64,000 nt of DNA, taken from assembly GCA_051362555.1 (NCBI GenBank), contig CM120649.1, forward strand, positions 15,886,567 through 15,950,566, read 5' to 3'. The stretch is from Lingula anatina (taxonomy: Eukaryota; Animalia; Brachiopoda). The translations under genes and the position numbers were made by a program. Below are positions 2,862-63,656 of the stretch, one piece after another (the first letter of the stretch is position 1; every line of letters begins with the position of its first letter). The notes under the pieces were generated by a model. The model worked only from the letters and a program-made list of their open reading frames with translations. It was not told where the DNA came from and searched no databases.

Positions 2862-3017
2862 GGTAATATTGAGTTTAAGACATCAGAGGATCCACAGAGC
2901 ACCAATCTTTTGATGCAGGCCGATTGGAAAGTCCCTGATCGAGAGAACTTGGATGGGATTTTCATGAACTCCACAGAAGTTATCACACCTATGGGAAAAG
3001 TGATTGTGGTGCAGTTG
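2862..3017 (+). CDS. Coding exon, ectodomain (GNIEFKTSEDPQSTNLLMQADWKVPDRENLDGIFMNSTEVITPMGKVIVVQL)
   Basis: Strong acceptor tctcttttcag|, donor TTG|gtgagt, 156 nt. Only one frame is open. N-glycosylation sequon NST. Confidence 0.7.
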
Positions 3018-18348: not shown

Positions 18349-18514
18349 GACATCATACCAAAAGTTATCCAGCCGCAAGTGTCGGGCATGGTATATGGCA
18401 TCGTTGGAGCATGCATCGTTGTTGTCATTTTGATAGCTCTCGCCATCTGGTGCATACGTCGCAAGACCCAGCAGGGGGAGCTTAAGGTAGAGGAAGTGGA
18501 AGAGGAAGACGAAG
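18349..18514 (+). CDS. Transmembrane-domain exon (DIIPKVIQPQVSG-MVYGIVGACIVVVILIALAIWCI-RRKTQQGELKVEEVEEEDE)
   Basis: Acceptor tttcattctag|, donor GAAG|gtaaag, phase 0-1. A 23-aa hydrophobic helix is followed by RRK (positive-inside rule, type-I topology). Confidence 0.9.
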
Positions 18515-18550
18515 GTAAAGATAGTAGTGAGTTAGCTTTGCGTTGACAAT

Positions 18551-23652: not shown

Positions 23653-23826
23653 GGGCCTTTTCAGAACCAACTTGATCTGGGGACCAACTGGGCAACCCAC
23701 TTTAAACATTTCTGCATAACCCCCTTATGGATTTCCGACAGGGATTATGCGGCATGCTTTCAAGTGGGTCGCCATCTTTATTCCTAGATTAGTTAGTTCG
23801 CAGATCTACATGTTGTGAACATGACC
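23653..23826. mobile_element. Hairpin MITE (B-related)
   Basis: ctatag/catag flanks, inner inverted repeat acccactt...gcataacccc / gggattatgc...aagtgggt. Shares agtgggtcgccat with 19026-19214. Confidence 0.6.
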
Positions 23827-25467
23827 ATAGAGTCCTATATAGTGGTACTTGTGAACAACTCTTTGATGCTCTGATGAGACTCTGTCAGGTTGCTTTGATG
23901 GTAGGACATCTACAAAGACCCCCCTTGATAACCTGTAAGAAATGCTCTTCGAGAGGTCATCCAGCTCTAAAGTACTTAGAAGAAAAGGTCTTGTGAATCT
24001 TTTGCAGTATTTTTGTTCCTGTTATCTTTTTGTGTTCCTATAACATGGTGTTCTTGTTGTAACAGTAAGTGATAGGCTCTTAACTCGGGTAAAGTGATAG
24101 GGGTTTTTAACTTAAGAAGCAGAGGGGCACATGTTCCCAGTTGCTTATGTATTATTATTTCTTTGTAAGGGCATTGCACTTAAATATGGAGTCCAGGTTG
24201 TCAATTTTTTTTTCCTATCTATCTTTTTATGATTTTTAGGGGCCTGTTTCTTATCTTTTGTTTGCTCCTAGTGTTTCAGTGTTTTGATGGTTAAAGACTA
24301 GAAGCAAAGTTGGCAATTTTACCTTTTTTTTTTTTTTTTTTTTTTTTCAAGTTACAATTTATTTTATATCTCTGTGACAGGATATGGTTTACCCAAGGTG
24401 CACACACTTGAAGCACAGTAGACATCTATAATCATTTTAAGAAACAATTCTTGGGACAAATTTAGTGTGACTGTCCCTATACAGCACTGAAAATTAAATA
24501 AAAGCACGTTACTTTTCACTTCCTAAAGCCAAGTGGAGAGAAAACGGCCTTACAACTTGTAATTATGGGTTGCTTTTTTAGTTTGAAACTTCGTTAAGCA
24601 GTTGTTATGTAAGATTAGACAACTCACAGTTCTAGGAAAATTCATTGCGTTTTTTTTTTCCAAGCTTAAGTCAATAAAACGGTATTCCATATAGAATTCT
24701 CTTACTGCTTCAGTCCAGTGCTTCTTGGGTGTTAGGCCAAATTAACCCAAGTGGGCATTGTGTGCGTTTTTGGTACAGTATGGGAAACTGCTATATTTGT
24801 TATTGCATCTTGGACTACAACCAGAATTTCTCTTCTGTCCTTTAGTACTAAATTACGGTACAAAAAAGTGTGTGTGTAAATGTACGTGTAACCAAGTCCA
24901 ATAGCCGTGCTTATTATGGAGATGTTGATGAGGTTATGCTCCCCCTGAGATTTTTCGTTAGGAATGATTGTATCTGTAATTCAACAAGAGTTCAATTGTG
25001 TATTTTTTTATGTACAGACACTGTTTTGTCAGACAGTGGTGATAACAGTATTTTTTTCTAACATAAAGTCAACACAAGTTGAAGTTTCAATCCAGTTTGA
25101 GTTTAATTTCCAACACTCAATATTGAAGGAGATAATGGTTGCCTTGTATGAATTTTGTGGATTTTATGCTCATTTTTTACATTTTAGTACTATTTTTTAA
25201 ATCTGTGTTATTATATTTCATGTTATTTCATTACTAACTATCAATTCAAAATGGCGGCTCTTAAAGACTGTTGCTGTTTCCACAGACCAACTGCTCACAG
25301 TTTTTCAACTGTTGCTTGAAAATTATTTTACGAGACGTGACAGGTGGGATCCACAGTTGCACCATGTCTGGCTTATGTGACTTCTAAATATTGATTCTGT
25401 GAGCTAAAATTACGTGTCCATTATCGATATACGAGTTATGACATGCTATACATATTTCTCCTTGCAG

Positions 25468-25526
25468 GTTACAGGGAAGATGACACTCCGGGGAGCCAAG
25501 TCTACCCACCACATACACCTGTGCAG
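25468..25526 (+). CDS. Cytoplasmic exon (G)YREDDTPGSQVYPPHTPVQ
   Basis: Acceptor tttctccttgcag|, donor CAG|gtgagg. Phase 1-0 matches both neighbours. Confidence 0.85.
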
Positions 25527-38950: not shown

Positions 38951-39025
38951 TATCAAGTTGTCAGGTCACAGAGTGAAGAAATCTCTGTAGACAGCCCTGA
39001 TCTTGGAGAGCCAAACATTGAGAGG
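38951..39025 (+). CDS. Cytoplasmic exon YQVVRSQSEEISVDSPDLGEPNIER
   Basis: Acceptor ttatttacag|, donor AGG|gtaagc, 75 nt, phase 0-0. Confidence 0.85.
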
Positions 39026-39390: not shown

Positions 39391-42300
39391 TTATGTACAG
39401 ACACAGAAGTGTCTGTACATATTGCCATCACCTGCGTCTGTCGTCGCCGATGCCGATGCCGATGCCGGCGCCGTGCACTTTCCTTGTTAACACGATAAGT
39501 GGAGGGCAGTTTTACTTTTTGGCTTTATATTTACAGAGCTGATGAATATTCATAAAACACAGGTCAAGTTCGAAAATCAGCATGATCGGGCCATTATTGT
39601 AGAAGTTATGCTGTTTTTTTCACTTTTCAGCATATATGCAGCCCTGTTAACACATTTTAAGGAAAACCGATAGGCCTGTTGTCATTAAACTCACAGGAGT
39701 AATCAATCTTACTAAAACGCAGGTCAAGTTCGAAAATCGGCATGATCGGGCCACTATTTTAGTAGTAATGCTGTTTTTTCACTTTTTAGCATATATGCAA
39801 CATTGTTAACACATATCAAGGAAAACCGATAGGCCTGTTGTCATGAAACTCACATTAGTAATCAATCTTACTAAAACGCAGGTCAAGTTCAAAAATCAGC
39901 ATAATGGGGCCATTATTTTATAAGTTATGCTGTTTTTTCACATTTCCTCAGATTCAATTCTTAGGCATGTTAACAGTCTCATTATTTAACTAATAAGATA
40001 CGTAAATGTGTTTGTTTGACATTTCCTGCAACTTTACAACATTGTTAGTTGATTATGTAAAAATGATGGTAAACTTGTTATCATGTATTGTATAATAGAG
40101 TTTCAAAAATGGAAAAAAACTCATATCATTGCAGTTTGTCAGATTAATTCATTCACTATGTTCAGAAACTCGGAATGGAGGAAATTGGACATTAAACACT
40201 GTTCTATTGATATTTTTCCCATGTCATCAATTTTCTAAGTTGATCATATAAAAATGGCAGTAAACTGTTAATTTTGTTATATGTTAAACAATTGTTAAAA
40301 ATGGAAAAAAACACATTTCAGGACAGTGCTGTCTTGTTTACATTTTGGCATTTTCAAGGTGTGACTTTGAAGTTCCATGGGCCTGAAGACCTTTGCTTGT
40401 CACATTTTCTGAATATCCATGATACTAATATTTTATTATTAAAAATTGATGGTCATTATGCTGTTAAACATTATGTAATATTGCATCAAAATTTGAAGAA
40501 ACCCCTATTTTGGACACTGCTCCCATGATGACCATTTAAGGAAAACCATGTCACTTACTGTTCTCAAACTTACATGAAAGAAACATGGGACTAAGATACA
40601 GTTTAATTAGGCAATGCAGTCTGTTTGGTAATTCTTTCTGGCAGTTAATCGGTTTTTTGTGAAAATTTAATTTTTCACATATTGGCATTTTCAAGGTGTG
40701 ACTTAGAACCTCCAAGGGCTTGAAGACCCATGGTAGTCACATTTTCTGAAAATCCACGATACATATATTTTATTATGTACATATTTGCCATCACCTGCAT
40801 CTGTCGTCGCCGTCCATGTTGCCGTCGCCGTGCACTTTTATCGTTAACACCATAAGTGGAAGACAGTTTTACTTTTTGGCTTTAATATTTACAGAGCTGA
40901 TGAATATTCATAATACGCAGGTCAAGTTCGAAAATCAACATGATCGAGGCATTATTGTAGAAGTTATGCTGTTTTTTTTTTCACTTTTCAGCATATATGC
41001 AACACTGTTAACACAATATAAGAAAAACATATAGGCCAGTTGTCATGAAACTCACAGGAGTGGTTAATCTTACTAAAATGTTCGAAAATCGGCATGATCG
41101 GGCCACTATTTTAGTAGTTATGCTGTTTTTTTCACTTTTCAGCATATATACAACACTGTTAACACAATATAAGAAAAACAGATAGGCCAATTGTCATGAA
41201 ACTCACAGGAGTGGTTAATCTTACTAAAACTCAGGTTGAGTTTGAAAATCAGCATAATCGGGCCATTATCTTAGAAGTTATGCTGTTTTTTCACATTTCC
41301 TCAGATTCAATTCTTAGGCATGTTAACAGTTTCATTATTTAATAAATAAGATACGTAAAAGTGTTTGTTTGACATTTCCTGCATCTTTACAACATTGTTG
41401 GTTGATTTTGTAAAAATGATGGTAAACTTGTTATCGTGTATTGTGTAATAAAGTTTCAAAAATGGAAAAAAAACTCATATCATTGCAGTTTGTCAGATTC
41501 AATCATTCACTATGTTCAGAATCTCAGAATGGAAGAAATTGGACATTTAACACTGCTCTATTGATTTTTTTCCATCTCATCAATTTTTTTAGTTGATCAT
41601 ATATAAATGGCAGTAAACTGTTAATTTTGTTTTATGTTAAAAATTGTTAAAAATGTGGAAAAAAACATTTCAGAACAGTGCTGTCTTGTTTACATTTTGG
41701 CAATTTCGAGTTGTGACTTTGAAGTTCCATGGGCCAGAAGACCTTTGCTAGTCACATTTTCTGAATATCCATGATACTAATATTTTATTATTAGAAATTG
41801 ATGGTCATTATGCTGTTAAACATTATGTAATATTGCATCAAAATTTGAAAAAAAACTATTTTTGGGCACTGCTACTATGATGACCATTTAAGAAAAACCA
41901 TGTCACTTACTGTTCTCAAACTTACAGGAAAGAAACATGGGACTAAAATATAGCTTCAGTAGGCAATGCAATCTGCCAGTTAAACATTTTTTTGTGAAAA
42001 TTTAATTTTTCACATATTGGCATTTTCAATGTGTGACTTTGAAGTTCCACAGGCTTGAAGACCCATGATAGTCACATTTTCTGAAAATCCATGATAGGTA
42101 TATTTTCTTATTAAAAATTGATTGTCATTATGCTGTAAACCATTATGTAATATTGCATCAGAATAGAAGAAAACACAATTTTGGGTGCTGCTGCCATGAT
42201 GACCATTATGAGAAAACCATGTAACTTATGATTGAAAAACTTTCAAAAAAGAAATACAGGACTAAAATGCAGCCTGACGTTGGAAAAGCAGTCTAATTGA

Positions 42301-42534
42301 CTTCTTTTTCTGGAAGTTTTACATTTTCAAAGTGTGAACTTGAACTTCCATGGGCCTGAAGCCTTATGCTTGGTACACATTTTACTTTCATTGGTATTAC
42401 CTGTTGAGCATAATTAAAATTTGATGTTGAATTTGCAGTTTAACATAATGTACTTTTGTATCAGAATTGACAGTAGCCTATTTTGTTATTTCCTGCTTTT
42501 TGTCTGTACATTTGACAGCTTTGCTGCCTTATCT
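39391..42534 (+). mobile_element. Non-autonomous Helentron-associated (HINE/DINE-1-like) element, family H1, head-to-tail dimer (junction ~40772)
   Basis: 5' subTIR+IR hairpin tatgtacagacac-agaa-gtgtctgtacata (39392-39421), (gccgat)n microsatellite, internal ~160-bp and ~320-340-bp subrepeats, 3' subTIR tgtctgtacat (42501) and a short stem-loop cagc-ttt-gctg. T-rich flanks, no TSD. Confidence 0.8.
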
Positions 42535-42603: not shown

Positions 42604-43863
42604 GAGTTCGTAAGGCCACCAGGAGAATCATATCCAAGGTCAGCAAGTAGGCAAAGGTCATTAGGTCAGAGGTCAAGTTCACTTCCAGAAAGAGATCCTG
42701 GAACTCCGGGAGACTGGCTGGAAAATAACTCTGGACCTAATATTACCATGATTCCTGGGGTTGAACCTGTCCTCTGGGAACCTCTCAGCAATGATGACAG
42801 AATCGAAGAAGAATGGTGTGACCTTGACCTTTGTGATGGCATCCACACAGATGACAGCATTTCCACAAGAAGTTCCCAAAGGGAGATTGAGGTTGAGGCT
42901 GAAGAAATTCCTGTTGAACCACCAGGCTATGATGAGTCCCAGCTCAAACGAACAGTCCCAAATCGTCCAGCACAAGTGCCGATTGAAAAAGTGGTGCCTG
43001 TGCAGCAGCCAGAAGGCGGCGTTATCACAGTATTTCATGTGCAGTCCGAATACAATGGACAGTTTCAAGAATCCAGCCAGGGCAAGGAGGCTGACTCAGA
43101 CATTCAGGCTATTGATGGAGAGAAAAACAAAGGAAAGAAAGTATTATCAGTTAAACCATACAACATGCACAAAGGAAATCAGGATGGAATCGGAGAAATT
43201 GGTCCAAAGTCGAGAAGAAAAAGTAGTCCCAACGACCCATGGTTGACCACTGATGGTGAAAGGGCTCCACATGGAGAGCATTCTAATGCAAATGGCTATC
43301 ACCCAGATGAAGAAGAAGAAGAAGAAGATCTTTGTACAAGAGATTTATGTGATGGTATTCACTCCAGCAATGAGTCTGTGTGTAGCAGTGAAAAACATCA
43401 GCCTCTCCATAGCACCCCTAAGCCAAAGATTCCTCCCACCCTCCTATCCCATAAAGATGATGCTCACACTTACTATTTAGACCAACGAGACCCTCCGCTG
43501 ATATCTCCCGAGCCTATAGTCCCTGAGTACGAGGAAAAGCTTCGGAGCACTGTAGGTCCAGGTTTCTCATGGTCAGCAAACTTAAAAGATTCCGTTTTCA
43601 AGTCCCAGAATTCTGACCGAGTTGGCCTGTCATCGAAGTTCCCAAATCCTGTCCATGTTGAGAAAGTGACCGTTCTGGATGCAAAGCCGTCAGGTGACCG
43701 TGTGAGCTTGACCGGCACACCCAAAGCTGCCAGAGTTCCCAAAGTTGACCAGGGTCAAGGGACTTGGACACCAGTCAGTCAACACAGAATGAGACCCATG
43801 GTGGTGGAATGTACTGATGGTTTATGTGATGGGATTCATACAAGTGATGAGGATCTGTCGGAG
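42604..43863 (+). CDS. Large cytoplasmic exon (420 aa, disordered; three C-x3-LCDGIH motifs, PPGY, poly-E)
   Basis: Acceptor ctttggtttctag|GAG, in frame with the 411-aa ORF 42748-43983. Donor GAG|gtggtg (alternative GTG|gtgttt at 43866). GC content rises; phase 0-0. Confidence 0.9.
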
Positions 43864-44272
43864 GTGGTGTTTCTGTATATGATATTTTCTTTTTTTTTTC
43901 ATGGTGATTTGCATGGATATTGTGTAGCTATTAAGTGTTGTGCTTTTGTAATTGGCTCTGAACCATTTTTGTTGTCATTCTAAGTTTCATTGTGATAAAT
44001 ACATATTATTGCATCAGGTTATGTTAAATGCTCAAAATATTATGTCACCATTTAATAAACTCTTTTTGTACTTCATTTTATGTATATAACAATTGCTCTG
44101 ATTATCTTAAAAGAAAAATTTTTAATAAAGTAAACAACATGTTAGAAGAAATGTCTTCATTGTATTAAAACAAAAGTTGAATTTAACTTAAAAATTTCAG
44201 CAATACTATTCAGCATTGCTGTATAAATTATCTTGATTATATATATATAGTATGACATTTTTCACATTTTAG

Positions 44273-45119
44273 TCCTCAAGCTCAGTCCATCAAGGCTCAA
44301 GACAGAGAGCTGCATCCAAGTCATCTCATCAAAGTTCAAATCAAAGGTCAGGGTCAAGGTCAGATGAGTCATGGCCAGATCCCCCAGACAGTGTCCAATC
44401 AGAGGCCAAAATTGAGAAGGAGCTTGATTCTGGTGCTTTGGACTTACCGCCCCCTCCTCCCACCCCCAAACTTCACAGGAGGGATGTAGGGGGTAAACAA
44501 CTGGAAGTGGTTGGAGACATTTCTCCTTCATCTCCCGGCTCTTCACCACGCTCCAAGAGACACATCACTCCTATTCCTGTCAAAACTCCAACCGTCCCCA
44601 TCACAGCAAAAGTGTCATCAACGTCATCACCATCTTCATCGTCTCAACAGCAATCCTCTTCCCCTAAATCCCCAGCTGGGCTCACCGCCAGGCCAACACG
44701 CCCAGAGAGACCAAACACCCTGATTCCCAAGGGGGAGGCCCCCCACATGTCCCCTAGGGTGCGGAAAGCTGCAGTGCCAAATCTCCAGAGAGATAGGGAG
44801 TGGAAGCCTCTAAAACCCAGGGGACAACCAGCCCATGACAAATTTTGCACATTAGAGCTTTGCGATGGAACACATTCCGAGTCTGATCATGATTTAGATC
44901 AGGGTCATGGAAGCAAGCAAGGTCATTCAGGTCAAGGTCACACAAGTCAAGGTCGTGCAGCTCAACAGCCTCGTCACCCTAACGGTGCTCCCCCAGGAAT
45001 TCCAAAGACAGCCATGTTGACTTTCAGTGTGCTCACCGTGCTGTCACTGGTGTATGGGTCTTGCAGGCTGAACCCTGAAGTTGCCGTCACTGTTTACATA
45101 CCTGGTCATATTGTACTGG
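44273..45119 (+). CDS. Large exon: S/P-rich cytoplasmic region, fourth C-x3-LCDGTH motif, then hydrophobic signal-peptide-like MLTFSVLTVLSLVYG
   Basis: Acceptor ttcacattttag|TCC, in frame with ORF 44438-45142. Donor CTGG|gtaagt, phase 0-1. Confidence 0.88.
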
Positions 45120-46535: not shown

Positions 46536-47236
46536 TTAATTTTAGATTAATAACAAAACTGCACAGATATAGAAGTGATTGCACACTGAGTAAATGAATT
46601 ATGATGGAAAACTAAATGGCCCCAAAGGTATCATAAAAGGAACAACAGACTTGCCTACTCCTTAATGGGGAAGCAAATGAAATAATGAAAGTGACAGAGC
46701 ATCTTCTCGTTTAATGACCCTGAAGATATCTGTTTTGTGTATTTGCTTGTATCAAAAATTTTTTAAGAGAATCAATATGAGGGGGCTGTTGTTACTGTCT
46801 ATAGTCAGTAGAACTTGGCCAACAGGGTATGTTGTTAGCTGAGTTGTGACTTGATGATGACAAGGTGAAAGTGCCTAAAGTCGTCCCTAGTTAATGGACC
46901 TGAAGCTGTCTTTTTTACATCATAAGCCATAAGTTTATCAAGATGACAGGTTATTTTAGAGAAGATTGGTTATTGCTGCTTTTAGAACCCAACTGTGCCA
47001 TTTCAGGCATGCTGGTATGTTGTGTGTTGTATCAAAAATGGCAGTTGGCGTCCATCATTGCTTGCAAGAGAGACGCAGGTCCCCATGGTAACAAGCTCAA
47101 TACTGTTATGATAAAAAAAAGAATGAAAGAAAGAAAGAATGTGGCAGCCAAGTTTTCAGATTGAAGAGGAATCTTTCCCCTACAGGCGAAAATTATTTGA
47201 GATAATGGGATCCAATAGACAATTTGTTATTTCTGA

Positions 47237-50200
47237 TTATTGTACCACCAGCGTTAGCGCTGGCGGTACACATGGTTTCGGTCCCGTCCGGATCGTTCCG
47301 CCGGCTCCGCCGGCTCTGCCGGCTCCGTTGGCTCCGCCGGCTCCGCCGGACGGCTACCGTTACCGCTTCTCCTCCTAGACGGTAAGGGCCCCCGTACCCA
47401 TCTCATGGATTTAGGTCACCTATAATCTCAACTCGTTCCACGTAAAATTTGGGCTTTGTCGGTATTGGGGTCTGGGTGTGGCACTCATTGCAATGCACCC
47501 TTGTCTAAAAATGGCAAAATTAAATGCTAATTATCTACCCTACGGAAGGAGTTATGGGAAAAATTTCTATGGACGGCTTTCCAAAAGTCATATGTGTAGA
47601 TTTCAAATATACCCTTGGATTTGACCTTTGACCTCTACTTCAAGGTCAAATGGGCCAAAATTTTCAAAAAAATGAAATTTTTTACGAAAAAAATTTTTTT
47701 TGCCCTGTTATTCAGACACCACACAGACTTAACCAATAATATTATTGGAAAGTGTTACCCTTCAGGTCATCTTTCATTTCCATGAATTTGGGGTCAATCG
47801 GTGCATTTTCACGGGAGTAGCGGCCATAAGATACCGAAACTGAAAACTGTCTCTAATTCGGGAACCGTTAATGCTAGAGACCCATTCTTTTTTGCATTTT
47901 GTAGAGCATGTAAAGCCCAACACTGGAGGTGGTCTCGGTTTTTTTGTATTCCATACGGTTTTCGAGTTACGCTGTATCAAAAAGTACATATTGGTGGTAA
48001 AAGCAAAATGTGCAGTACGGTAATGGATAATAAATTTTGAACTCTGGAAAAATAAAACATAAGGCTTGGCAAAGCAGACAACTTGTTTTCAAAAATGACA
48101 TTATTTCATCAAATTTGAACTTCTGAAACTTCAGAGCACCTCCTATTTCAAGAATTTTGACCAAAATGACATTTTCTTTATTTTAATTAATTTTTTCTGT
48201 ACGAAATTTAAGGCACATTATGGTAACTCCAAAATTATAACATCTAGTCCCTTATATCTCCAAAACTGGCAGAGATAGGTCCATAGTTACTATTGAAGTT
48301 GAATAGGAAGTCATATACTGGCAATCTTACTATGACCTTGAAATTGACCTTTGACCTACTTTTCACCATGAACTGAACTTTGCAAATTTTTCTTCCCTTT
48401 TATCTCCAAAACTGGCAGAGATAGGTCCATAGTTACTATTGAACTTGAATAGGAAGTCATATACTGGCAATCTTAATGTGACCTTTAAATTGACCTTTGA
48501 CCTACTTTACACCATGAACTGAATTTTGCAAATTTTGCTTTCCTTTTATCTCCAAAACTGGCAGAGATAGGTCCGTAGTTACTATTGAACTTGAATAGGA
48601 AGTCATATACTGGCAATCTATATGTGACATTAAAATTGACCTTTGACCTACTTTTCACCATGAACTGAATTTTGCAAATTTTGCTTTCCTTTTATCTCCA
48701 AAACTGGCTGAGATAGGTCCGTAGTTACTATTGAACTTGAATAGGAAGTCATATACTGGCAATCTAAATGTGACCTTGAAATTGACCTTTGACCTACTTT
48801 TCACCATGAACTGAACTTTGCAAACTTTTCTTCCCTTTTATCTCCAAAACTGGCAGAGATAGGTCCGTAGTTACTATTGAACTTGAATAGGAAGTCATAT
48901 ACTGGCAATCTATATGTGACATTAAAATTGACCTTTGACCTACTTTTCACCATGAACTGAATTTTGCAAATTTTGCTTTCCTTTTATCTCCAAAACTGGC
49001 TGAGATAGGTCCGTAGTTACTATTGAACTTGAATAGGAAGTCATATACTGGCAATCTAAATGTGACCTTAAAATTGACCTTTGACCTACTTTTCACCATA
49101 AACTGAACTTTGCAAATTTTGGTTCCCTTTTATCTCCAAAACTGGCTGAGATAGGTCCGTAGTTACTATTGAACTTGAATAGGAAGTCATATACTGGCAA
49201 TCTAAATGTGACCTTAAAATTGACCTTTGACCTACTTTACACCATGAACTGAATTTTGTAAATTTTGCTTTCCTTTTATCTCCAAAACTGGCAGAGATAG
49301 GTCCATAGTTACTATTGAACTTGAATAGGAAGTCATATACTGGCAATCTAAATGTGACCTTGAAATTGACCTTTGACCTACTTTTCACCATGAACTGAAC
49401 TTTGCAAACTTTTCTTCCCTTTTATCTCCAAAACTGGCTGAGATAGGTCCGTAGTTACTATTGAACTTGAAAAGGAAGTCATATACTGGCAATCTAAATG
49501 TGACCTTAAAATTGACCTTTGACCTACTTTACACCATGAACTGAATTTTGCAAATTTTGCTTCCCTTTTATCTCCAAAACTGGCAGAGATAGGTCCATAG
49601 TTGCTATTGAACTTGAATAGGAAGTCATATACTGGCAATCTAAATGTGACCTTTAAATTGACCTTTGACCTACTTTTCACCATGAACTGAACTTTGCAAA
49701 CTTTTCTTCCCTTTTATCTCCAAAACTGGCTGAGATAGGTCCGTAGTTACTATTGAACTTGAATAGGAAGTCATATACTGGCATTATAAATGTGACATTA
49801 AAATTGACCTTTGACCTACTTTTCACCATAAACTGAACTTTGCAAATTTTGCTTCCCTTTTATCTCCAAAAGTGGCAGAGATAGGTCCATAGTTACTATT
49901 GAACTTGAATAGAAAGTCATATACTGGCAATCTAAATGTGACCTTGAAATTGACCTTTGACCTACTTTTCACCATGAACTGAATTTTGCAAATTTTATCT
50001 CCAAAACTGGCTGAGATAGGTCCATAGTTACTATTGAAGTTGAATAGGAAGTCCTATACTGGCAATCTAAGTGTGACCTTGAAATTGACCTTTGACCTAC
50101 TTTTTATCATGAACTGAACTCTGCTAATTTCTTTCTCTTTTAACTTCAAACTTGACAGAGATAGGTCCATAGTTACTCTTGAACTTGAATAGGAAGTCAT

Positions 50201-50450
50201 ATACTGGCAATTTACTGTGACCTTGAAATTGACCCTTGACCTACCTTACGAAGAACTTAAATTTGATTGTACCATATATATTTTTTGCAATAGTTTAAAA
50301 ATTCTTGTTGATTGTATTTTTACAGCTTGTCAAGCACAAAACTGGCGGCTGTGTCCCTTATTTTGTGTATGTGGGGGTCTATACGAATGCGTTTGCTCCA
50401 GCTGGTGGTACAATATTTGGAGGCGGTATCGCCTCTCTGATCCTCTAGTT
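47237..50450 (+). mobile_element. Non-autonomous Helentron-associated (HINE-like) element, family H2, apparently complete
   Basis: 5' subTIR tattgtaccaccagc plus IR gctggcggtaca, (ccggctccg)n microsatellite, internal 146-bp array, 3' subTIR gctggtggtacaata (50401; 15/15 complementary), stem-loop gaggcg-gtat-cgcctc (50420-50435), end ctagtt. Confidence 0.88.
48253..50245. repeat. 146-bp satellite array, ~13.7 copies, inside the H2 element
   Basis: tatctccaaaa(c/g)tgg at 48255, 48401, 48547 ... 49861 with exact 146-bp spacing, then a shortened unit (49996) and a degenerate last unit. Confidence 0.97.
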
Positions 50451-51397: not shown

Positions 51398-51490
51398 GTG
51401 ATGTTCAAGTCTTCTTTGACACCAGCAATGGAGGTAGAGTAATAGCAGATTATTGGCGTGGCAGAAACAGAAGCTCAATACACGTTTTTG
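51398..51490 (+). CDS. Extracellular exon (G)DVQVFFDTSNGGRVIADYWRGRNRSSIHVF
   Basis: Acceptor ttttcatcag|, donor TTG|gtgagt, 93 nt, phase 1-1. Confidence 0.85.
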
Positions 51491-51602
51491 GTGAGTGCTA
51501 CAAATGTTGCAAATCCTGTGTTGTCATACACAAAAGATGAAAGGATTGCTATCAACAACTGATTAAGATTACTGACTTTTCGGGCCTTTCAACAGTAAAA
51601 CG

Positions 51603-52069
51603 GGCACCTTAGCACAATGACAGCCCAACATGTAAAACTGGCACCTTAACACAATGACAGCCCAACATGTAAAACTGGCACCTTAACACAATGATAGCCC
51701 AACATGTAAAACTGGCACCTTAACACAATGACAGCCCAACATGTAAAACTGGCACCTTAGCACAATGATAGTAGCCCAACATGTAAAACTGGCACCTTAA
51801 CACAATGACAGCCCAACATGTAAAACTGGCACCTTAGCACAATGACAGCCCAACATGTAAAACTGGCACCTTAACACAATGACAGCCCAACATGTAAAAC
51901 TGGCACCTTAGCACAATGACAGCCCAACATGTAAAACTGGCACCTTAGCACAATGACAGCCCAACATGTAAAACTGGCACCTAAGCACATTGATAGCCCA
52001 ACATTTAAAACTGGCACCTTAGCACAATGATAGCCCAACGTGTAAAACTGGCACCTTAGCACAATGATA
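51603..52069. repeat. 37-bp minisatellite (~12.5 copies), continuing at 56806-56850 after the transposon
   Basis: Unit ggcaccttagcacaatgacagcccaacatgtaaaact. Confidence 0.95.
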
Positions 52070-52801
52070 TCCCAAACAAAAATACTTCCTTGCAACAAGC
52101 TAGTCACAAGCTTGTGGCAAGCTAGTTTTACCCTTCGCAAGCTTGTTACAAGCAAGTTGGAAGCTTGCGCATGCTTGCATGAGGCTAAAAAGGATTTCTG
52201 CAAGCTTGCAAGATACTTTTGCAAGTTTGCAGAATTGATCTGCAAGCTTGCGAAATACTCTGCAAGCTTGCAGCGGGCAATGAAGGCTTTCTGCAAGCTT
52301 GCATGATATTTTTGCAGGCTTGCAGAACACTCTGCAAGCTTGCAGTTGGTCAGGGAGGTTTTCTGCAAGCATGCAAGATATTTTTGCAAGCTTACAGAAC
52401 ACTATTCAAGCTTGTAATTAATAATTAAGCTTGTGATGACACTTTCTGCAAGCTTGCATGAATTTTTGCAAGCTAGGAAATCTGAACAAGCATCTGGGAA
52501 TTTTAATTTCTGCAAACTTGGAGGTAAAATGTTAATATGATGAGCCTCTAGAAAGAGGTGAAAGTACTAGAGGATCATATATTCTTTGATTTTCTTATAT
52601 ATAAACAGGAAATTACTGGGCTTTCCTAAAATCTGAACAAATGGCCGGACGAAAAATCCGAAATTTTCAGGGGTTTAATGAAACAGAAACAAAAAGATTG
52701 TTACAAAGTTTTACGATGCTTAAAATGTCATTTGAAACGTTATGATTTGTGTATAAGGTTTTATCTTAATCTTTTCATAGACCAGATAATTTACATATTG
52801 C

Positions 52802-54049: not shown

Positions 54050-54173
54050 CGGAAGAAATGACCGCAGCGCCACCTATGGCGCGTAGACAAAGCGCTCGTA
54101 CGCATGCGCGGAAATGTCGTCTGCTCTAATCCGCTGCATCAAATTCAAACTGCGAGCTCGAGAATACGAAAAA
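54050..54173 (+). promoter_or_regulatory. CpG-rich putative promoter of the transposon-borne gene
   Basis: Highest CpG density in the window. CTCF-like cagcgccacctatggc (54065), NRF1-like tacgcatgcgcg (54099) and ETS-like cggaaa lie directly upstream of the ATG at 54174. Confidence 0.45.
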
Positions 54174-54357
54174 ATGGAAGAAAACACCGCGAATCTCTTT
54201 TGTTGGTTCGACTGGGATGACAATGCAACTAGCGTCAACAGTATAAAAATTATCAAAGAACCGAGAAAAGGCTTTCTTGAATACAAAAAAGGTGACGAAG
54301 TTGTAGCAAAGCTACCGAAATTTGGACTGTGGAAAGGTGTCATCGTAGAAATTGGCG
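54174..54357 (+). pseudogene. First exon of a truncated transposon-borne accessory gene (Tudor/PWWP-like; resembles N-termini of BEN-domain proteins)
   Basis: aaaATGG start; MEENTANLFCWFDWDDNATSVNSIKIIKEPRKGFLEYKKGDEVVAKLPKFGLWKGVIVEIG; donor GGCG|gtaagt. The next acceptor (caacacag| 54608) reaches TGA at 54643, just before an H1 fragment. Confidence 0.6.
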
Positions 54358-54654
54358 GTAAGTTTTCCTTTGTTAAACAACATACATTTTTCTAATTTAA
54401 TCGTCAGTTGAGAATACACCGATATTTTTAGAAGTATTTTATGAATGAAGTTCAAAGAATTTTTTTTTCATGCTGAAACTAGTATTGTCTGTGAGCTTAA
54501 AATCGTCATTGAGGTAGAATGTAGGTCTCCTGCAGTCCGTGCCGTCTTGAGAAACTGATAATGTAATTTTGTTACTTATTGTTACTTATTGTTGCTTTCC
54601 AACACAGGTCCCAGATGGTCCTCTTCGTTGGACTCAATAACTTGACTTCCGGTT

Positions 54655-55852
54655 GTTTTCAAGGTGTGACTTTGAAGTTCAATGGGCCTGAAGACCTTAG
54701 CCAGTCACATTTTCTGAATACCTATGATACATATATTTTATCATTAAAAATTGGTAGTCATTATGCTGTCAAGCATTATGAAATATTGCGTCAAAATTGA
54801 AGAAAAGCCTATTTTAGGCACTGCCGCCATAGTGACCCTTAGAGGAAAACCATGCCACTTACTGTTCTCAAACTCTCAAACAAGAAAGAAACATGTGATT
54901 AAAATACAACTTCAGTTGTAAATGCTGTCTGTTTTGGTATATTTTTCTGTAAGCTACACATTTTTAGTGCAAATTTAATTTCTCACATGTTGGCATTTTC
55001 AAGGTGTGATTTTGAATCTCCATGGGCTTGAAGGCCTTTGCTAGTCACATTTTCTGAATATCCATGCTGCTAATATTTTATTAACAATTGATGGTCATTT
55101 TGCTGTTAAGCATTATGTAATATTGCATCAAAATAGAATAAAATGCAATTTTGGGTGCTGCTGCCATGATGACCATTATGGGAAAACCATGTTACTTATG
55201 ATTGTCAAACTTATAAAAAAGAAACACAGGACTAAAATGCAGTCTGAGTTGGTAAAGCAGTCTAATTGGCTTCTTTTCCTGGAAGTTATACATTTTGATG
55301 AAATATTCATTTTTATTGTATTGGCATATTCATTGTGGGTCTCAGAGCTCCCAAGGGCATGAAGCGGATTGGTAATCAAATTTTGTACATGTCCATGCTA
55401 TTTATAGTCAATAATCAAAAATTGGTGATAATTATTTTGTAATTTATTATGTAATGTTACATCTTCTTTTTGCACTGCTACCACAAACATTATGAAGAGA
55501 AAACTGTGTTACTTATTATTATTTTTAACTTACAAGAATGATTTTTAGGATTAGCATGCAGCTCAAATTAGAAAGCCAACTCAATTGGGTAATATCATTT
55601 ATTATTGAATTTATGCAATTTTGTGTGAAATTTTCATTTTCCTCATTCTGGCATTTTCAAAGTGTGAACGAGAACTCTCGTTGGCCCTGAAGCCTTCTGC
55701 TTGTTACATATTTTACTTACATCGGTATTACCTGCTCAGCATAATTAGAATTTGATGTTGAATTTGCAGTGAAGCATATGTACTTTTGCATCAGAATTTA
55801 CAGTTACTGAAGCCTATTTTGTGCATTGTTATTTTTTGCTTTTCTGTACATT
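54655..55852 (+). mobile_element. 5'-truncated H1-family HINE fragment nested in the TIR transposon
   Basis: Colinear with 41700-42511 (ttttcaaggtgtgactttgaagttc...gcatcagaatt...gaagcctattttg...tctgtacatt). Confidence 0.85.
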
Positions 55853-56260
55853 ACACTACTTAATAGATTTACATGCTTGTATATATTATATTACATTTTT
55901 TTTTTTAATTTTCCTCATTGTTGGTAGATAAAGGGACACTTGCTTGTAATGTTATCCAGAAATTAATCATTACACTACTTAATAGATTTATATGCTTGTA
56001 TATATATTACATTTTTAAAAAATTTTCCTCATTGTTGGTAGATAAAGGGACACTTGCTTGTTATGTTATCCAGAAATTATTACACTACTTAATAGATGCT
56101 TGTATATATATTACATTTTTTTTCAATTTTTGTCATTGATGGTAAATAAAAGGAACACTTGCTTGTAATATTTTCCAGAAATTAATCACTACACTACTTA
56201 ATAGATTTGTATGCTTGTATATATCAACTTTTTTTTTCAATTTTCCTTGTTGTTAGTAAT
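55852..56260. repeat. ~110-119-bp tandem repeat, ~3.6 copies
   Basis: tacactacttaatagat at 55852, 55971, 56081 and 56190. Confidence 0.9.
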
Positions 56261-57070
56261 TCAAATTACTATTCATTTTCTGTACAATAATCTAGATAAT
56301 AGATGAGTGAAACCTCCTACTCAGTAGTTATTTGTGTCAATTTTGTATGCAGTTAACCTTTAGAAAATAGTTTCAGTGTGCTTGCAGTTAAGCTTTGTGC
56401 AAGCTTGCAGTTTTGCTTTCTGCAAGCTTGCAGTTTAGTTTGCCACAAGCTTGCAGTTTGGCTTGCTGCAAGCTTGCGGTTTGACCTGTCGCAAGCTTGC
56501 ACTTTGGTCTGCTGCAAGCTTGTGGTTTTAGCTTGCCGCGAGGTTTCAATTACTAGCTCGTCGCGAGGTTCCAATTCCGAGCTTGCAAATTAAGCTTGCC
56601 GCAAGCTTGCAGTTTGGCTTGCCGCAAGCTTGCGGTTTGGCCTGTCGCAAGCTTGCAGTTTGGCCTGCTGCAAGCTTGCGGTTTTAGCTTGCCGCGAGGT
56701 TTCAATTACTAGCTCGTCGCGAGGTTCCAATTCCGAGCTTGCGAATCAAGCTTGCCGCAAGCTTGCAATAGCAATGAATTGCAAGCTTGCCATTTTTGTT
56801 TGGGATAGCCCAACATGTAAAACTGGCACCTTAGCACATTGATAGCCCTACCTGTCATTGACATGTTAACGAGCATAGCTCCTTATGTTTACTAGTATGT
56901 GCCAGATGGGTAAGATCTATATGTAAAGAAAAAAAATGAAAGAAAAAAGAAAAATTAGGTTATAAAGTGATATGTTACAGGATATATTGCCTTAACAAGA
57001 TTACTCTCTCCATTAATCTTCACTTAAATGAAAAAACCTATTAAGGCATCATACCTATTTTCTATTTAAG

Positions 57071-57223
57071 ATCTGGATTCTGCTGCAGCCACCAATAGAT
57101 CCACGTGTCTCCCTGCTCAGGTGTGTCCAGAGTTTGGCCCTGTCCACCTTATTGGTTGTAATGCAGCCACACAGAAATGCGTGTGTCAGCGAGGTTACTC
57201 GCTCCTTCAAGGAACCTGCCAAG
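57071..57223 (+). CDS. EGF-like exon (D)LDSAAATNRSTCLPAQVCPEFGPVHLIGCNAATQKCVCQRGYSLLQGTCQ
   Basis: Acceptor tctatttaag|, donor AAG|gtatgt, phase 1-1. Six Cys with the C-x-C-x2-G-Y-x6-C EGF pattern. Confidence 0.9.
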
Positions 57224-59868: not shown

Positions 59869-60084
<216 letters not shown>

Positions 60085-60491: not shown

Positions 60492-60566
60492 CTTGCAGTG
60501 GGTCATGTCCGCCTGGCTTCTATCAGAGTTCTCCGTGCTCTGACACACAAGATAGGAAGTGTGCAG
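60492..60566 (+). CDS. TNFR-like Cys-rich exon (A)CSGSCPPGFYQSSPCSDTQDRKCA
   Basis: Acceptor ttattttgtag|, donor CAG|gtaaac, phase 1-1. C-x3-CPPG-x6-C-x4-D-x2-C pattern. Confidence 0.9.
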
Positions 60567-60914: not shown

Positions 60915-60986
60915 TTTGCGTACATTGTACAAAGACTGGGTACGAAGTGAGACCTTGTGGAAGGGGAATGAACAGAAAGTGTGTCT
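60915..60986 (+). CDS. Second TNFR-like Cys-rich exon (V)CVHCTKTGYEVRPCGRGMNRKCV
   Basis: Acceptor cattttcag|, donor CT|gtgagt, phase 1-1. Nearly the same four-Cys spacing as the previous exon. Confidence 0.88.
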
Positions 60987-63596: not shown

Positions 63597-63656
63597 CCGT
63601 CTCCAACCCCTTAGGTACGCCGCCATCTGATGGCCGAGTATTTGTGGAGGCGAACA
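63597..63656 (+). CDS. Exon (S)VSNPLGTPPSDGRVFVEAN; the gene continues beyond the window
   Basis: Acceptor ttgcag|, donor ACA|gtaagt, 60 nt, phase 1-1. Confidence 0.8.

Follow-up and report, generated by a model that had tools for sequence, protein, structure and literature searches.

What might a peptide of ten residues, carrying two cysteines and a histidine, be doing four times over in a long loop of an animal protein? The question is raised by a stretch of intron-rich animal DNA from Lingula anatina, 30-42% GC, which we call the window (64,000 nucleotides, taken at its full length). A sequence-only reading had pointed to four dispersed decapeptides and likened them to the CDGSH motif of iron-sulfur proteins. 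A pattern scan recovers them, on the + strand, as exactly four occurrences of C-x3-L-C-D-G-[IT]-H-[ST], while the looser C-x4-C-D-x2-H matches these four and no others in the six frames of the 64 kb, and a profile built from the four finds no fifth copy in the window (best other match E 2.9). Copy 1 (42775..42849) consists of W-x-P-L at 42775-42786, an acidic linker, the core at 42817-42846 and a Thr; copy 2 (43297..43365) of Y-H-P-D at 43297-43308, a run of Glu, the core at 43333-43362 and a Ser; copy 3 (43765..43842) of W-x-P-V at 43765-43776, the core at 43810-43839 and a Thr; copy 4 (44801..44878) of W-x-P-L at 44801-44812, the core at 44846-44875 and a Ser. Cys, Leu, Cys, Asp, Gly and His never vary among the copies, and all four have a Ser or Thr right after the histidine. 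The tryptophan element noticed at the outset, W-x-P-[LV], is indeed found in copies 1, 3 and 4, at 10, 11 and 11 residues upstream of the first Cys; Y-H-P-D takes its place in copy 2, nearer to that Cys.

The repeat is beyond chance. When the 702-residue stretch that holds it was shuffled 200 times and scored for 70 shapes, each with six fixed positions in ten residues, no shuffle went beyond two copies of one pattern, and the real stretch reaches four. Eight of the nine cysteines of the 735-residue loop sit inside the motifs. After splicing, the copies start 172, 159 and 209 residues apart, and the spacers between them are mutually unrelated (best blastp E 4.1). Any two copies show 9-15 nucleotide differences over their 33 positions, and the codons of the six invariant residues differ synonymously in 20 of 36 pairwise comparisons. 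It is this synonymous divergence, together with the unrelated spacers, which tells us that the peptide is conserved and not the DNA; the view that the repeat is maintained at the protein level thus stands.

The RNA evidence consists of four runs of raw reads that carry the same species label, the fourth of which contributed only 4 reads over the motif exons. Both of these exons are covered, the second continuously (44273..45119). Between them lies an intron of 409 nt (43864..44272, + strand, GT..AG, phase 0), seen in 12 spliced reads from three of the four runs. Copy 4 is in a genomic frame different from that of the others, and the splicing of this intron in the reads places it in frame. Most of the reads match the window at 90-95% identity, and hence would come from a diverged population or a sister lineage. 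Among the 40 differences listed of 130, 28 are synonymous and 12 nonsynonymous (pN/pS about 0.13): the reading frame of the motif exons is under purifying selection. None of these 40 falls within a motif core. The reads disagree on the length of the acidic linker that runs from the aromatic-x-Pro element to the first Cys: copy 1 can have one codon more and copy 2 can lack one or three, so the aromatic element is flexibly linked to the cysteine core.

The gene to which the motif exons belong can be modelled as twelve exons of the + strand, encoding 1,044 residues, with GT..AG at all ends and no stop; the reads link the central four of them. The model begins with a predicted exon for an extracellular part (2862..3017; strong splice scores and phase fit), with no match in Pfam or the PDB. 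It is followed by a predicted exon (18349..18526, placed by phase fit only) with a transmembrane helix at about 18388-18453 (hydropathy 3.18 over 19 residues, weak matches to the transmembrane families of receptors), then three basic residues. A predicted short exon of the loop comes next (25468..25526, from splice scores and phase fit). A further loop exon, 38951..39025, is joined to the first motif exon by the loose ends of 19 reads from three runs, which map to 38995-39024 with one mismatch. The large exon, 42604..43863, has 420 codons and RNA coverage, and bears motif copies 1-3. Exon 44273..45119, with RNA coverage and an open frame, comprises a disordered stretch rich in Ser and Pro, copy 4 and a second hydrophobic segment at 45011..45058 (hydropathy 1.61 over 19 residues). 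The exon that opens the second extracellular part, 51398..51490, is likewise placed by loose read ends (3 reads of one run, mapping exactly to 51400-51429). Downstream are predicted exons for a six-cysteine EGF-like module (57071..57223; phase fit, a weak cEGF match at E 0.56, low RNA depth in its bin), for a calcium-binding EGF domain (59903..60025; Pfam EGF_CA at E 4.5e-11, above cut-off), for a TNFR cysteine-rich module (60492..60566; Pfam TNFR_c6 at E 4.7e-6, its 27.3 bits lying below the cut-off of 29.4) and for a second TNFR-like module (60915..60986; TNFR_c6 at E 0.023). A possible further short exon, 63615..63656, rests on phase fit only. The gene probably extends past both ends of the window. 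Two of the ectodomain exons gave only chance matches in the PDB, and a BRICHOS or cadherin-like identity of the ectodomain exons was considered but dropped, with no match in Pfam or the PDB.

The introns have a content of their own. A repeat element at 47236-50450 includes an array of 13.8 copies of a 146-bp unit (48248-50244), and is represented in poly(A) RNA at a depth of over 1,000 in one run; its reads probably stem from a multitude of copies in the genome. Other tandem or dispersed repeats, with periods of 37 to 159 bp, some of them transcribed elsewhere, occupy 39553-42530, 51590-52414 and 55849-56767. An open frame of 102 codons at 54087-54392, with no Pfam match, is possibly a transposon-borne gene fragment, the end of which looks like a strand pattern of the Tudor/KOW type, and a short frame at 23793-23993 has a weak match to DUF7558 (E 0.0028).

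On which side of the membrane would the motifs reside? The predicted layout is an extracellular piece, a helix, the 735-residue loop, a weaker hydrophobic segment, then an EGF-like, a calcium-binding EGF and two TNFR-like modules. The motifs had been assigned to the cytoplasmic region of a membrane protein, pictured as a receptor tail. The cytoplasmic location is very likely correct; the tail is not, as the second hydrophobic segment makes the region a loop. The link between the first helix and the loop is a phase fit only, and yet the disulfide-rich modules beyond the second segment would make the loop very likely cytoplasmic even if this helix belonged elsewhere. The disordered character of the loop, the basic residues after the first helix and the EGF and TNFR modules past the hydrophobic segment suggest that the motif cysteines face a reducing compartment. 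That the motif region is disordered, as first proposed, agrees with AlphaFold2: run with no alignment, it gives neither the large exon (mean pLDDT 40.4, with 381 of 420 residues below 50) nor the motif any predicted structure. Short sites of other kinds lie in the loop as well, namely a single PPxY (42919-42930), a single LPPPP and three occurrences of [ST]-x-I-P, with exon 44273-45119 contributing to this set; they are possible docking sites for WW, EVH1 and EB1 domains respectively.

With a Met close to its start and small residues at -3/-1 at its end, the second hydrophobic segment looks like a cleavable signal peptide within a long frame; it may be a weak transmembrane helix or an internal signal peptide, with cleavage as a putative outcome. 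The product of the transcript may be a precursor that is split in two, one part anchored in the membrane and another that is extracellular, or the transcript may go back to two tandem genes that fused long ago. Astrotactins offer a comparison: their description lists an extracellular part, a helix, a long cytoplasmic loop, a second helix followed by a signal peptidase cut, and a C-terminal part that is large and extracellular, and calls such internal cleavage uncommon among cellular proteins (bioRxiv 10.1101/493858). The likeness (extracellular part, helix, long loop, second hydrophobic segment, extracellular C-terminal part) is an analogy of topology only; after the segment the Lingula gene has EGF-like, calcium-binding EGF and TNFR-like modules. 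No sequence match to astrotactins came up, nor is there a Pfam match to them in the exons scanned, and the C-terminus of the gene lies outside the window. In astrotactins the C-terminal part contains a MACPF domain.

Relatives were sought widely, and no orthologue emerged. The 419-residue exon gave no match at E 0.001 with phmmer against 1.84 billion representatives, which was the one search to cover proteins shorter than 561 aa; the exon of copy 4 entered the searches only in part. Word-indexed searches, which require three shared words of five residues, yielded no homologue of the exon among 2673 candidates (proteins of 735-2095 aa) and no candidate for motif 1 alone (805-2295 aa), and a motif-weighted alignment search of 4892 candidates (561-2000 aa) had nothing at E 10. 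These blanks do not show absence, because a simulation indicates that the phmmer search would miss relatives that share the motifs only: five of five random proteins furnished with four minimal motifs scored E 0.03-16, missing its threshold, and a motif-only profile scored such four-motif proteins at E <1e-7. The ESM Atlas returned two unnamed or low-complexity leads at 0.76, and none for motif 4 with the hydrophobic segment. A metagenome scan, with a pattern that demands Thr after the first Cys and so fits three of the four copies, found 41 loci, all of them single-copy: six CDGSH-type, three long Cys-rich repeats of bacterial type, the others mostly short or off-frame. The acidic tail context is found in none of the 41. 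Several CDGSH-type loci (L002, L012, L029, L001, L007, L028, L034) have an extra Cys five residues before C-D-G-T-H, so that some genuine CDGSH motifs do include C-x4-C-D-G-x-H. Viral contigs had no motif match, prokaryote genomes two pattern matches and no locus; the motif region has no match by sequence in the PDB, nor has a low-confidence 40-residue model of the motif in fold searches. The claim that the motif belongs to no described family is therefore upheld for Pfam, the PDB and the literature searched (supplements and subscription papers being outside its scope). Strings reading CDGIH turned up there as a protocadherin label and as the core of a plant defensin, and were set aside; a mollusc protein with two helices and EGF and TNFR modules was not found in it. 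The repeats, then, are real, expressed, under selection and undescribed as far as searched, on the evidence of one lineage.

The explanation that we favour, though tentatively and at somewhat less than even chances, is that the motif, read as C-x4-C-x3-H, supplies only some of the ligands of a zinc site, and that the rest would come from another copy or from a partner. Of the ideas in the sequence-only reading, that of a half-site or a docking motif is thus the one to retain. Cys, Cys and His are invariant in all four copies, and a conserved fourth ligand is absent within any of them. This is the composition of segments that form intermolecular zinc sites, with two or three Cys or His each, too few for a full site. 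The same spacing makes up the last three ligands of some CCCH zinc fingers, which have three Cys and one His within about 20 residues, a possibility which we discarded: there is no third upstream Cys in any copy, and the CCCH models of Pfam stay silent at E up to 10. Two systems give an idea of how a shared site might operate. In nitric oxide synthases, all isoforms, two CXXXXC motifs hold one zinc, as a tetrathiolate, at the dimer interface, where the site is S-nitrosylated (PMC10602574); the C-x4-C spacing, overlooked in the sequence-only reading, is that of Lingula, with no ancestry link implied. The tails of CD4 and CD8 and Lck, unstructured alone, fold around a shared zinc (PMC12198760), and they likewise present cysteine half-sites in unstructured cytoplasmic parts of membrane proteins. 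The Lingula motif differs from both by its four dispersed copies per chain, its extra invariant His, its acidic Ser/Thr tail and the want of a surrounding fold, and no sequence match to the proteins of either system was obtained in the PDB.

By analogy, the repeats would bind zinc only when joined by another copy or by a partner protein, through the motif Cys, Cys and His as candidate ligands, and would act as a multivalent clasp, sensitive to metal and redox state, in the predicted disordered and likely cytoplasmic loop. Completion in trans might bring two C-x4-C pairs around one zinc, or add one partner ligand to Cys-Cys-His; four copies would then suffice for two clasps within the chain, or could tie several receptor molecules together. 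The aromatic-x-Pro element would be a separate, flexibly linked contact, and the Ser or Thr after the His, if phosphorylated by an acid-directed kinase such as CK2, could be the switch: the consensus S/T-x-x-D/E follows the motif in three of the four copies. A complex prediction with two copies of motif 1 and zinc speaks for neither side (score 0.00). The invariant Leu, Asp and Gly, and the Ser/Thr after the His, are explained equally well by a degron.

Such a degron, which the sequence-only reading did not raise although the second half of the motif is as close to it as to CDGSH, is the strongest rival to the zinc half-site, unlikely as we deem it to be. The repeats would be variant phosphodegrons for beta-TrCP, or decoys, with SCF(beta-TrCP) binding the loop and controlling turnover or trafficking of the receptor, with Asp in place of the first phosphoserine and the Ser/Thr after the His phosphorylated by an acid-directed kinase. 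With REST DEGIHS and beta-catenin DSGIHS (listed in PMC10317156 Table 1 and PMC13297208) copies 1-3 do agree over the final four or five positions, sharing acid-Gly-Ile-His-Ser/Thr in a disordered acidic context; in copy 4 the hydrophobic position is taken by Thr. There are precedents for an acid ahead of the Gly, instead of the first phosphoserine (DDG in CDC25B, DEG in REST, TDG in MCL1; PMC10487276, PMC9606124, PMC11734646, PMC10317156), and further non-canonical cases are on record (PMC5514133). D-G-x-x-[ST], within the general degron form of phospho-Ser or acid, Gly, two residues and S/T/D/E, occurs four times in the loop, always within the motifs; from loop composition a Ser/Thr after the His in all four copies has a probability of ~0.001, calculated post hoc; the CK2 consensus just mentioned suits this kinase scheme too, and the PPxY in the same exon (42604..43863) as copies 1-3 points to ubiquitin control. 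The difficulty is at the first degron position. The table lists degrons that start with DSG, DDG, EEG, SSG and TSG, and a Cys is at the first position in none of its 47 rows, counted by eye, against four of four copies here (PMC10317156); Cys stands precisely where beta-catenin has D32, which is described as required for binding (PMC6354055). Compared with the degrons of REST, beta-catenin and CDC25B (DDGFVD), as listed there, the Lingula motif thus has Cys for the first Asp, four copies and an invariant upstream C-x3-L that belongs to no listed degron, and copy 1 is without a Lys within 30 residues on either side. Equal in our estimate to the degron, and so also unlikely, is a docking motif independent of metal, in which aromatic-x-Pro-hydrophobic and C-x3-L-C-D-G-I-H would jointly bind a cytoplasmic partner, with four copies for avidity. 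Arrays of linear motifs typically look like this, with copies scattered among unrelated disordered spacers and linkers whose length changes between reads, and the W-x-x-[LV] elements fit the core of LC3-interacting motifs. The extended LC3 pattern fits one of the three W elements, in copy 3, and copy 2 has no W element; besides, two invariant Cys and a His in a ten-residue motif would be unusual without metal or redox chemistry.

Iron-sulfur chemistry, which was among the original suggestions, fares less well than zinc. The CDGSH consensus requires C2, C4, S/T7, P11, C13, D14, G15, S/T/A16 and H17 together with a beta-sandwich, C13-D-G-x-H17 belonging to the iron-binding loop (PMC3174974). Measured against mitoNEET/CISD and zf-CDGSH, the Lingula motif keeps C13-D14-G15 and H17 only, and has two Cys, not three: C-x-C-x2-[ST]-x3-P before C-D-G is absent in all four copies, and the ending C-D-G-[STA]-H is present, with Thr, in copy 4, copies 1-3 having Ile. 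Kinship with CDGSH/NEET proteins, or a 2Fe-2S site of their kind, is consequently not borne out, likeness being confined to the last five residues, with four of nine conserved positions missing and the beta-sandwich apparently so; the suggested comparison with Pfam detects no zf-CDGSH at E up to 10 in either exon or any of the four copies, and low-confidence AlphaFold2 models from one and four sequences have no strands, with low-complexity spacers. One might still conceive of each repeat as half of a site at which a 2Fe-2S cluster forms a bridge, in effect a pared-down CDGSH module that another copy, a partner or glutathione would complete. The resemblance of C-D-G-[IT]-H to positions 13-17 would speak for it, as would the statement that CDGSH modules are always paired (PMC3174974), the motif having four copies. 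The absence of C2, C4, S/T7 and P11, an Ile in place of the small residue 16 in three copies, the beta-sandwich that is stated to be required, and the blanks in Pfam and the PDB make this a weaker metal reading than zinc, and quite improbable. The least probable explanation is that the cysteines are lipidation or redox sites, or the repeats decaying, functionless remains of old duplications. It would account for the lack of a relative in any collection and for spacers that keep no likeness; but six residues have stayed invariant while their codons changed synonymously and the spacers lost similarity, which needs selection on the peptide, and for lipidation the His, Asp and Gly would be needless. 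Finally, there is a slender chance that zinc and degron are combined, zinc on Cys-Cys-His masking D-G-I-H-pS/pT until its loss, or oxidation of the Cys, enables beta-TrCP binding; a Cys oxidised to an acid might even mimic the missing Asp.

That short motifs should form arrays in the disordered loop of a receptor is nothing new as a kind; the Cys-Cys-His chemistry and the architecture of the host are the new part. That host is unusual, with its predicted helix, its 735-residue loop, its internal signal-like segment and its EGF and TNFR modules, in one lineage. Very few cases are known of zinc sites formed between molecules in the disordered regions of receptors, and such sites are hard to spot in sequence; a naturally repeated, four-copy Cys-Cys-His module would provide a searchable signature for them; alternatively, it would provide one for degrons with a cysteine where an acid was thought necessary. 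If the gated degron were true, Lingula would possess a stress sensor with four sites, borne by the loop of a novel EGF/TNFR receptor that is astrotactin-like and internally cleaved.
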